In this document: in pieces, positions 26,232 to 26,898 of the stretch
How positions within the stretch are numbered: position 1 is the stretch's first letter
Layout: each line of letters starts with the position of its first letter
Origin: Escherichia phage vB_Eco_PATM
Sequence record: OX090893
Reading direction: 5' to 3' (one strand)
DNA length: 64,000 nucleotides
Made by a program: the position numbers and the translations under genes
The notes under the pieces: generated by a model
What the model saw: the letters and a program-made list of their open reading frames with translations, nothing else
Databases searched by the model: none
What the model was told of the DNA's origin: nothing

Positions 26232-26663
26232 ATGATGATACTGACGATGTTAATAAATCTACTGAAGAATAAATGGGTTAGGTATTTGGTTCTTATTATA
26301 GCACTATTTGGTGGTTTGTATGTTGGTTTAAACAAATTACACGATGACGTGTATGCACAAGGCTACAACGCAGGTGTTGCTAAACAAGAACAAATATTAC
26401 AACAAAACCAAATTAAAGCAAAACAGCAATTCGATATCTTACAAGCAAAAGCAGATTCAGAAAGATCTAAATTGAATGAAAAAATTCATTCATTAACGAA
26501 AGAAAGAAATGATCTTCTTACACAACTGGATAAGAAGAGTAATAACATAACACAAGAGAGAATAGATTATGCGAAAACATCTTCTGGCGCTATGTCTTGT
26601 TTTAGCCCTAATGATGACGGGTTGCGCATCATCAACAACAGCTTCCCAGCCTCTACTGATTGA
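26232..26663 (+). CDS. Inner-membrane spanin-like protein (N-terminal TM plus coiled coil)
   Basis: 143 aa; TM WVRYLVLIIALFGGLYVGL then Gln/Lys-rich coiled coil; overlaps a lipoprotein gene in another frame. Confidence 0.5.
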   Translation: MMILTMLINLLKNKWVRYLVLIIALFGGLYVGLNKLHDDVYAQGYNAGVAKQEQILQQNQIKAKQQFDILQAKADSERSKLNEKIHSLTKERNDLLTQLDKKSNNITQERIDYAKTSSGAMSCFSPNDDGLRIINNSFPASTD

Positions 26664-26898
26664 GCAGTGTAAAGCTGTAGCAACACAACAAATAAAAGCC
26701 CCTGATTCTGTCAGTATGGAAAAACCATCTACCCCTGTTCTATACACTCCTAATCAAATAAAGAAAGGAGTTACAAGATCAGAGGTAGTTGATAATCAAA
26801 CTTTAAACAACGCTTTGTGGGAAAAAGATAGGATAAAACTTATCAGTTTACAAAACTATATTAAAACATTACAAAGTGAAAGAATAATTTCTAATTAG
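26569..26898 (+). CDS. Outer-membrane spanin-like lipoprotein (overlapping the preceding gene)
   Basis: 109 aa; signal peptide with lipobox LMMTG-C; starts 95 nt before the end of the upstream TM/coiled-coil gene. Confidence 0.5.
   Translation: MRKHLLALCLVLALMMTGCASSTTASQPLLIEQCKAVATQQIKAPDSVSMEKPSTPVLYTPNQIKKGVTRSEVVDNQTLNNALWEKDRIKLISLQNYIKTLQSERIISN

Follow-up and report, generated by a model that had tools for sequence, protein, structure and literature searches.

Essentially all experimental work on spanins has been done with the Rz/Rz1 proteins of phage lambda, and periplasmic cysteines for homotypic disulfides are a general trait of two-component spanins (Kongari 2018, PMC6139136). 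In the same survey, phages phi92 and phAPEC8 form one family among the overlapped i-spanins and one among the overlapped o-spanins. Its entry for phi92 is marked "ovl" and places the two genes on the plus strand at 55669-56101 and 56006-56336, with an overlap of 95 and a frame of +1; the i-spanin is given as 143 aa (432 nt) with a coiled coil at residues 54-115, and the o-spanin as 109 aa (330 nt), 91 of which make up the mature protein (Kongari 2018, PMC6139136). In the rV5-like phage LL12, the terminase is gp64, the o-spanin is gp65, and the i-spanin is gp66, with the endolysin encoded elsewhere and a holin not identifiable (PMC6658697). We found no genetic or biochemical test of any spanin of the phi92/phAPEC8 family in the literature that we searched.

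We analyzed a gene pair in a stretch of 64,000 nucleotides from Escherichia phage vB_Eco_PATM (sequence record OX090893), referred to here as the window. A preliminary description of this DNA, made from its letters, had proposed that a gene for a transmembrane and coiled-coil protein is overlapped, in another frame, by a lipoprotein gene and that the two are spanin genes. Both open reading frames (ORFs) are present at exactly the coordinates first proposed; they share 95 nt, and the o-spanin frame is +1 relative to that of the i-spanin, which is the arrangement of overlapped two-component spanins. Taken together, the evidence below makes it very probable that this pair codes for the two-component spanin of a phi92-like myophage. 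The features of the locus, in window coordinates, are as follows.

26232-26663, plus strand: predicted i-spanin gene, 143 aa; matches phrog_4297, "Rz-like spanin" (1.9e-40)
26274-26342, plus strand: predicted transmembrane anchor of the i-spanin, about residues 15-37, with the core WVRYLVLIIALFGGLYVGL (Kyte-Doolittle 1.89)
26569-26898, plus strand: predicted o-spanin gene, 109-aa precursor and 91-aa mature protein; matches phrog_1267, "Rz-like spanin" (1.6e-20)
26569-26625, plus strand: predicted lipoprotein signal peptide and lipobox of the o-spanin, MRKHLLALCLVLALMMTG followed by C (pattern match)
26569-26663, plus strand: dual-coding overlap of 95 nt (codon-position identity)
26598-26600, plus strand: codon for Cys123 of the i-spanin, its sole cysteine, predicted to be periplasmic and invariant in five homologues
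26668-26670, plus strand: codon for Cys34 of the o-spanin, invariant in five homologues
26907-28991, plus strand: large terminase subunit gene, given as context; phrog_979 (3.3e-221), Terminase_6N

Positions 25500-29000 match ESCO8, JLBYU50, phi92, and about 50 other records at 99.1 to 99.6% identity, with ESCO8 and JLBYU50 closest to the window (99.5 to 99.6%). Judged by this nucleotide identity, the window is that of a phi92-like myophage (Justusliebigvirus, Stephanstirmvirinae), and its source appears to be another isolate of the genus of phi92. Several of the 99% identical GenBank records carry i-spanin and o-spanin annotations here, and one relative carries the i-spanin annotation "LysB family lysis regulatory protein." The geometry of the pair is identical to the values listed for phi92 in Table S4 of Kongari 2018, and by homology and architecture the pair belongs to the phi92 family of SpaninDB. 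Matches to PHROG families named "Rz-like spanin," the i- and o-spanin annotations in GenBank, and the phi92 entry of Kongari 2018 all bear out the spanin reading of the preliminary description. The pair is already known from a curated spanin database and from GenBank annotations, and the discovery value is low; a catalogued pair had been recovered independently and with the correct start codons.

Pfam and NCBIfam scans of both proteins returned sub-threshold noise only. Four BLASTP comparisons with the lambda Rz/Rz1 and P2 LysB/LysC proteins gave no match in one case and E = 26, E = 0.39, and E = 0.062 in the others, the last through the signal peptide only, and the pair falls outside the lambda Rz/Rz1 and P2 LysB/LysC sequence families. 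Missing similarity to the lambda and P2 proteins is expected for spanins, and we did not count it against the assignment. Since no such similarity is detectable, the assignment rests on architecture and on topology signals.

The DNA around the pair contains tRNA genes, small ORFs of unknown function, and the terminase gene. As had been proposed, the pair stands just upstream of the terminase, which begins 9 nt after the stop codon of the o-spanin gene; this stop codon is directly adjoined by the Shine-Dalgarno sequence of the terminase gene, AGGAGG, so that the spanin genes head the string of packaging and structural genes. A terminator scan placed terminator-like hairpins upstream of the pair at 25498-25522, and a promoter scan around the pair gave counts no better than those in shuffles. 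A second hairpin-like stretch, at about 25930-25960, was seen by eye only and is absent from the scan output. The pair does not lie in a lysis cassette, a location that is usual for two-component spanins but does not define them. Within the 95-nt overlap, frame 0 encodes the last 31 residues of the i-spanin, and frame +1 encodes the signal peptide and the first mature residues of the o-spanin.

The 143-aa protein has a single hydrophobic segment at about residues 15 to 37 (Kyte-Doolittle), which was called as transmembrane from a hydropathy window together with the AlphaFold helix and which is hydrophobic in all five aligned homologues. K12, K14, and R17 stand before this segment, so that the N-in/C-out topology of an i-spanin fits, with one N-terminal transmembrane segment followed by a periplasmic domain. 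Both spanins were modeled with AlphaFold as monomers from single-sequence input. The i-spanin model consists of one continuous helix from residue 14 to residue 120, with pLDDT values of 89 to 98 over residues 31-110 and above 90 for about residues 21-110, and of an unstructured tail (residues 121-143). The predicted periplasmic domain is therefore helical by the AlphaFold model, and Pepcoil gives a coiled coil at residues 54-115 for the phi92 protein. The C-terminal motif SCFxPNDDGLxIINxSFP is conserved, and the cysteine within it, C123, is invariant in the five homologues. Because the N-terminal residues align across relatives, the start at position 26232 is supported. The prediction for this protein is a type II topology in the inner membrane, with a long helix in the periplasm.

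The 109-aa protein begins with MRKHLLALCLVLALMMTG followed by CASS. This sequence satisfies a PROSITE-type lipobox rule, in agreement with the lipobox noticed earlier, and the lipobox cysteine, Cys19, is encoded by TGC at 26623-26625. The residue at position +2 is Ala, not Asp. By the sorting rule of the Lol pathway, Asp at +2 keeps a lipoprotein in the inner membrane; with Ala at +2, the o-spanin is expected to reach the outer membrane. All five homologues keep G18 and C19 and have A, S, T, S, or N at +2. The predicted lipoprotein signal of the o-spanin is a signal peptidase II lipobox that lacks Asp at +2. Cys34 is the sole cysteine of the mature protein besides the lipid-modified one. At least one periplasmic cysteine per subunit, as is typical of homotypic disulfides in this class, is provided by C123 of the i-spanin and C34 of the o-spanin, and the disulfides themselves are putative. 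The AlphaFold model of the o-spanin shows a signal helix, a second, short helix near Cys34, disorder in a stretch that contains Pro (residues 39-69), and a confident C-terminal helix (residues 70-108); the mean pLDDT of the whole model is only 64.

Most database records of this phage group place the start of the o-spanin gene at MTGC... or later, and in many GenBank records the ORF has such a truncated start or is not annotated. A truncated MTGC... start removes the signal peptide and so hides the nature of the gene; the correct start is at 26569. The lipoprotein had also been described as long for an outer-membrane spanin, a remark that does not hold for the overlapped class. Overlapped o-spanins have 110 aa in P1, 120 aa in phiKZ, 129 aa in phiCbK, and 157 aa in OBP (Kongari 2018 Table S3, PMC6139136), and the tables of the survey also give 109 aa for phi1422, 117 aa for My1, and 127 aa for phi1402. 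A length of 109 aa is normal for the overlapped class and is long only in comparison with the embedded class (lambda Rz1, 60 aa). Membership in the functional class rests on the architectural traits of the class itself (Summer 2007; Kongari 2018), and all of those traits that can be tested are present in the pair. The gene arrangement is one such trait: neighboring spanin genes may be embedded, overlapped, or separated, and where they share DNA the o-spanin frame is +1 or -1.

Each of the two spanins was found by tblastn in 135 phage records. The breakdowns by organism and host are near-identical for both, and together with the equal counts they suggest that the same set of records is involved. 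As diverged relatives, we compared Citrobacter phage Tr1, Klebsiella phages KP2025 and KP13-16, and phAPEC8. Protein identity to these four relatives ranges from 33 to 53% for the i-spanin and from 36 to 66% for the o-spanin, and all four keep both overlapping frames (80 to 110 nt), the anchor, the full signal peptide, C123, and C34. The o-spanin, which is 65 to 66% identical in Tr1, KP2025, and phAPEC8, is better conserved than the i-spanin. For these same three phages, the DNA of the overlap is 77 to 80% identical to the window, compared with 49 to 70% in the flanks. All three codon positions within the overlap are 65 to 91% identical; in the single-coding flanks, identity is 34 to 54% at third positions and 58 to 83% at second positions. 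This pattern in the three nearer relatives is the one expected if purifying selection acts on both frames. The most distant relative, KP13-16, has no elevated identity in the overlap (44%). Linkage of the pair to the terminase is kept in Justusliebigvirus, Phapecoctavirus, Tr1, and KP2025; in KP13-16, tRNA genes, and not the terminase gene directly, come after the pair.

Three ORFs of the window match a lipobox-like pattern, and shuffles average 1.4; apart from the o-spanin ORF, the matches have internal or antisense starts. The lipobox-like pattern alone is thus not beyond chance. Considered in full, the pair exceeds what chance would give, in view of its conservation in 135 records, the frames and signals kept in relatives, and the identity pattern of the overlap.

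The alternative that survives best, although we consider it very unlikely, is that the 109-aa protein is a superinfection-exclusion or host-modifying lipoprotein in the style of T5 Llp, phi80/N15 Cor, or lambda Bor, with a membrane protein as an unrelated neighbor and no role in lysis. Phages do encode outer-membrane lipoproteins with other roles, and lambda bor adjoins Rz/Rz1, but here the overlapped +1 pairing with a partner made of an anchor and a helix is constant, even at 33 to 36% identity. The pair adjoins no lysis gene, as a lipoprotein of this kind would allow; an early exclusion gene, however, would be a misfit in a position that heads a late gene string. Although the literature that we searched gave no lysis phenotype for the family, the two proteins are each found in 135 records and both match PHROG families named for spanins, and each subunit has exactly one invariant periplasmic cysteine, as in two-component spanins.

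Still less probable is that the spanin-like pair serves as a lysis-timing or regulatory device or has a role at the envelope in DNA packaging or assembly, near the terminase. The P2 lysB and lysC genes are still annotated as "nonessential; affects timing of lysis," and the "LysB family lysis regulatory protein" label of one relative points in the same direction, but the timing phenotype of P2 lysB/C is now taken as a spanin phenotype, and P2 is the prototype of the overlapped arrangement (Kongari 2018). Conserved linkage to the terminase would suit a packaging role, yet neither sequence hints at contact with DNA or the capsid, and the pair of KP13-16 precedes tRNA genes, so that terminase linkage is not obligatory. 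The last alternative, which accepts the 143-aa gene but takes the 109-aa ORF for an accident of the other frame with a lipobox that arose by chance, has a negligible probability and is ruled out by the codon-position conservation data: lipobox-like patterns do arise by chance (3 versus a mean of 1.4) and many records truncate or omit the ORF, but only 95 of its 330 nt lie in the overlap, the remaining 235 nt are 39 to 54% identical at position 3 and 79 to 83% identical at position 2, the protein is 65 to 66% identical in Tr1, KP2025, and phAPEC8 and matches phrog_1267 (1.6e-20), and conservation extends upstream of the annotated, truncated starts to the whole signal peptide with Cys19.

A two-component spanin, the reading that we prefer, acts together with an endolysin, and the preliminary description had recognized neither a lysozyme or amidase in the window nor a holin or endolysin near the pair. 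Both statements stand. The endolysin of a relative (a phage 98% identical) gave no meaningful match to the window in tblastn (best E = 6.2), and no peptidoglycan-hydrolase Pfam domain was found in 18 tail and baseplate proteins of the window. The enzyme was located beyond the window through phage Nernie, which is 96 to 98% identical to the window throughout and has its sole annotated endolysin at 125706-126215. The right end of the window corresponds to Nernie position 136418, and by this mapping the endolysin gene would lie about 10 kb past that end, about 47 kb from the spanin genes and on the opposite strand; in JLBYU50, about 50 kb separate the spanin locus from the endolysin locus. The endolysin is a SleB-type cell wall hydrolase (PF07486, 6.5e-20, plus TIGR02869). 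Its N-terminus, SIKTFVAIALLSLTAFTFTPVVAQA followed by EA, is a hydrophobic segment ending in AQA-EA that resembles either a Sec signal peptide or a signal-arrest-release (SAR) domain, and such a segment would imply export without a large-hole holin. A "lysozyme in structural module" mentioned in the BME3 paper was not reproduced; the BME3 record has no such product, and none appeared in the Pfam scans of the 18 proteins.

We found no recognizable holin anywhere in the genome, and the phage group as a whole lacks a positively identified one. By eye, the translations of the three small ORFs that follow the Nernie endolysin gene show no membrane segment, and the BME3 paper agrees that the ORFs after the endolysin lack membrane segments. 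That paper proposes proteins of 61 and 81 residues as class II holins. Two small membrane proteins of the window are relevant here.

50246-50491, plus strand: 81-aa small membrane protein in the baseplate cluster, a holin candidate only; phrog_1322, "membrane protein"
11514-11693, minus strand: 59-aa small membrane protein downstream of the DNA ligase gene, a second holin-like candidate; phrog_19851, function unknown

In the 81-aa protein, one hydrophobic segment is clear and another is weak, and the C-terminus is charged. The protein is kept in 371 phage records, including those of rV5, PVP-SE1, and GAP31 types, and is nearly always called a "membrane protein"; only the BME3 record calls it a "holin." The preliminary description had taken it as the only holin-like candidate, a claim that has to be given up in view of the 59-aa membrane ORF on the minus strand. 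This second ORF has a strong hydrophobic segment (scoring 3.06) followed by a weaker one and probably corresponds to the "61-residue" protein proposed in the BME3 paper. The holin role of both proteins is putative and comes from their predicted topology. The "hol-like chemotaxis protein" at 13229-13549 (minus strand) was rejected as a holin, as it has no hydrophobic segment and gave coiled-coil noise only.

Myophages of the phi92, phAPEC8, and rV5 types could conceivably use a noncanonical lysis trigger, in which the 81-aa protein would be pinholin-like or release would be Mu-like and holin independent, but we regard this as rather unlikely. A holin-independent release mechanism has reportedly been described for phage Mu. 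With the spanin pair unlinked to endolysin and holin genes, the usual contextual support for a spanin assignment is removed; T4 shows that linkage is not required. The pair illustrates how lysis genes are scattered in large virulent myophages. The phi92, phAPEC8, and rV5 groups are widely used in phage therapy work.

Proceeding from the architecture, topology signals, conservation, family membership, and dual-coding constraint observed for the pair, we infer its localization, complex formation, disulfide bonding, membrane fusion activity, and late timing by analogy with lambda. The i-spanin would be held in the inner membrane by its N-terminal anchor, and its helix of about 85 to 87 residues would reach into the periplasm. 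The o-spanin would be exported and lipid modified at Cys19; after cleavage by signal peptidase II, its destination would be the inner leaflet of the outer membrane. Each subunit would be a disulfide-linked homodimer through its single conserved cysteine, as in the case of lambda Rz/Rz1. The periplasmic domains of the two subunits would bind each other in a complex that crosses the peptidoglycan mesh. As modeled, a helix of about 87 residues (about 130 Å) and a mature o-spanin of 91 aa would in principle be long enough to span the periplasm. A lesser, rather unlikely possibility is that the C-terminal helix of the o-spanin forms a heteromeric coiled coil with the helix of the i-spanin, unlike the proline-rich Rz1 of lambda. 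Destruction of the peptidoglycan by the endolysin would allow the complexes to move and to change conformation, and the freed complexes would fuse the inner and outer membranes, removing the last barrier to phage release.

Compared with known systems, the window pair shares with lambda Rz/Rz1 the predicted topology, the helical periplasmic domain of the i-spanin, the periplasmic cysteines, and the presumed mechanism. However, lambda Rz1 is fully embedded in Rz and is a proline-rich, unstructured protein of 60 aa, whereas the o-spanin of the window is overlapped, has 91 aa in its mature form, and is predicted by its model to have a confident C-terminal helix of about 35 to 39 residues. The lambda spanin genes come after S and R; the window pair is not in a cassette. 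T4 PseT.3/PseT.2 are, like the window pair, unlinked to holin and endolysin genes (Kongari 2018), and PseT.2 resembles the window o-spanin in being larger than Rz1 and in its predicted C-terminal helix (Kongari Fig. 8 legend), but the T4 genes are separated and those of the window overlap. The LL12 gp66/gp65 layout is that of the window, with the spanin genes directly beside the large terminase gene. The rV5-like spanins are absent from the tblastn matches at E ≤ 1e-3, so that any homology to the window pair would be remote.

Closer in arrangement is P2 LysB/LysC, the overlapped prototype, in which the o-spanin gene likewise begins within the 3' portion of the i-spanin gene, is read in the +1 frame, and continues past the end of that gene. 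The P2 proteins have 141 and 96 aa, compared with 143 and 109 aa in the window, and the P2 genes stand in a lysis cassette behind holin Y, endolysin K, and lysA, whereas the window pair stands alone. The gp121/gp120 pair of phAPEC8 (Phapecoctavirus) resembles the window pair in being overlapped and upstream of the terminase and in its MMTG-C lipobox, its cysteines, and its C-terminal motifs. It differs in that its i-spanin is 50% identical and has an N-terminus 13 residues shorter, its o-spanin is 65% identical, and its overlap is 92 to 110 nt, depending on the choice of start, compared with 95 nt in the window. The gp117/gp118 genes of phi92 are essentially the same genes as those described here, with an i-spanin that is 97.2% identical and with the same lengths, overlap, frame, and place before the terminase; they differ from the window pair by a few substitutions.

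In most GenBank records of the phi92-like phage group, the start of the o-spanin gene is put at MTGC/MMTGC or later, so that the signal peptide is lost from these records, and in many of them the gene is listed as coding for a hypothetical protein. When translation is taken from a conserved ATG further upstream (position 26569 in the window), all the relatives examined have a complete lipoprotein signal. In four stretches of relatives the o-spanin is annotated as follows:

L001, 4115-4399
L002, 27271-27558
L006, 3046-3330
L009, 3130-3288

Several records, among them MG065645, MG065639, and MG065689 ("Campylobacter phage A145, A150, A110a"), are labelled as Campylobacter jejuni phages. 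Their spanins and 81-aa membrane protein (the holin candidate of the baseplate cluster) share 99-100% identity with their counterparts in phi92-like phages of E. coli. This points to genomes that are mislabelled or come from a contaminant, and not to a true host jump.

Three further features lie around the spanin genes, and a fourth lies within the adjoining large terminase gene:

21790-25106, + strand, cluster of 16 tRNA genes directly upstream of the spanin-terminase block
26023-26196, annotated 57-aa ORF
26126-26272, + strand, 48-aa ORF (MITEEQWKEILENAQPMVVKKIVNNSPNLPKVKFKDD...), overlapping the 3' half of the 57-aa ORF in a different frame
27033-27506, 158-aa insertion at residues 43-200 of the large terminase, interrupting the Walker A motif

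The tRNA cluster comprises three Met-CAT, two Ser, two Leu, and other tRNA genes, with small ORFs interspersed. At its 3' end the 48-aa ORF overlaps the beginning of the i-spanin gene. In comparisons with Citrobacter phage Tr1, Klebsiella phage KP2025, and Escherichia phage phAPEC8, this ORF shows stronger conservation than the 57-aa ORF does in its C-terminal half. Its ATG is found at the equivalent position in each of the three. It could be an additional overlapping gene or a frameshift product.

The Walker A motif of the large terminase reads GGAAG, is then interrupted by an insertion running from C to VTGN, and resumes with SGKS. The first residue of the insertion is Cys, the last is Asn, and the next residue is Ser, as would be expected of the ends of a mini-intein, making the insertion a candidate for such an element. 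Residue 201 is exactly where similarity to other terminases (Aeromonas phage TS9) picks up again. Searches of the insertion against Pfam intein models and PDB sequences gave no match. In a Pseudomonas jumbo phage, a stretch within the gene for an RtcB-type RNA ligase matches terminase residues 42-114; in PHROG, residues 23-133 match a PhoH-like family. The insertion appears to be common to the whole subfamily, as the terminase gene is 2,085 nt in Tr1 and KP2025, the same length as in the window, and 2,076 nt in phAPEC8, and Phapecoctavirus terminases show 86% identity across residues 1-300.

Three other membrane or tail proteins are encoded in the window:

11514-11693, - strand, 59-aa ORF directly downstream of the DNA ligase gene
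48159-50234, + strand, 691-aa tail protein directly upstream of the 81-aa membrane ORF
54178-54519, + strand, 113-aa protein between the tail-fibre assembly and colanidase tailspike genes

The 59-aa ORF, with one very hydrophobic segment and a second, weaker one, matches phrog_19851 (function unknown) and is a second holin-like candidate, absent from the preliminary description. In the 691-aa tail protein a Calx-beta domain is accompanied by two domains, N-terminal and TIM-barrel, of the "non-contractile tail sheath protein" family (7.9e-82). The "lysozyme in the structural module" claimed in the BME3 paper may go back to this protein; its domain matches include no recognised peptidoglycan hydrolase. 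In the 113-aa protein a hydrophobic segment at the N-terminus precedes a coiled-coil-like region. This protein matches phrog_15210 "lipoprotein" (2e-70), with weak matches (5e-4) to phrog_462 "lipoprotein" and phrog_739 "Rz-like spanin"; its sequence holds no lipobox.

The endolysin gene lies outside the window and was located in phage Nernie, which is 96-98% identical to the window:

Nernie 125706-126215 (25706-26215 of stretch L004), SleB-type hydrolase (PF07486)

Its start codon in Nernie is TTG. Because its N-terminal hydrophobic segment finishes in AQA|EA, the endolysin looks like a secreted or SAR-type enzyme. The N-terminally extended form is also present in rV5-like and PVP-SE1-like phages. 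The alignment of T5-like homologues to the endolysin begins only at residue ~38-44.
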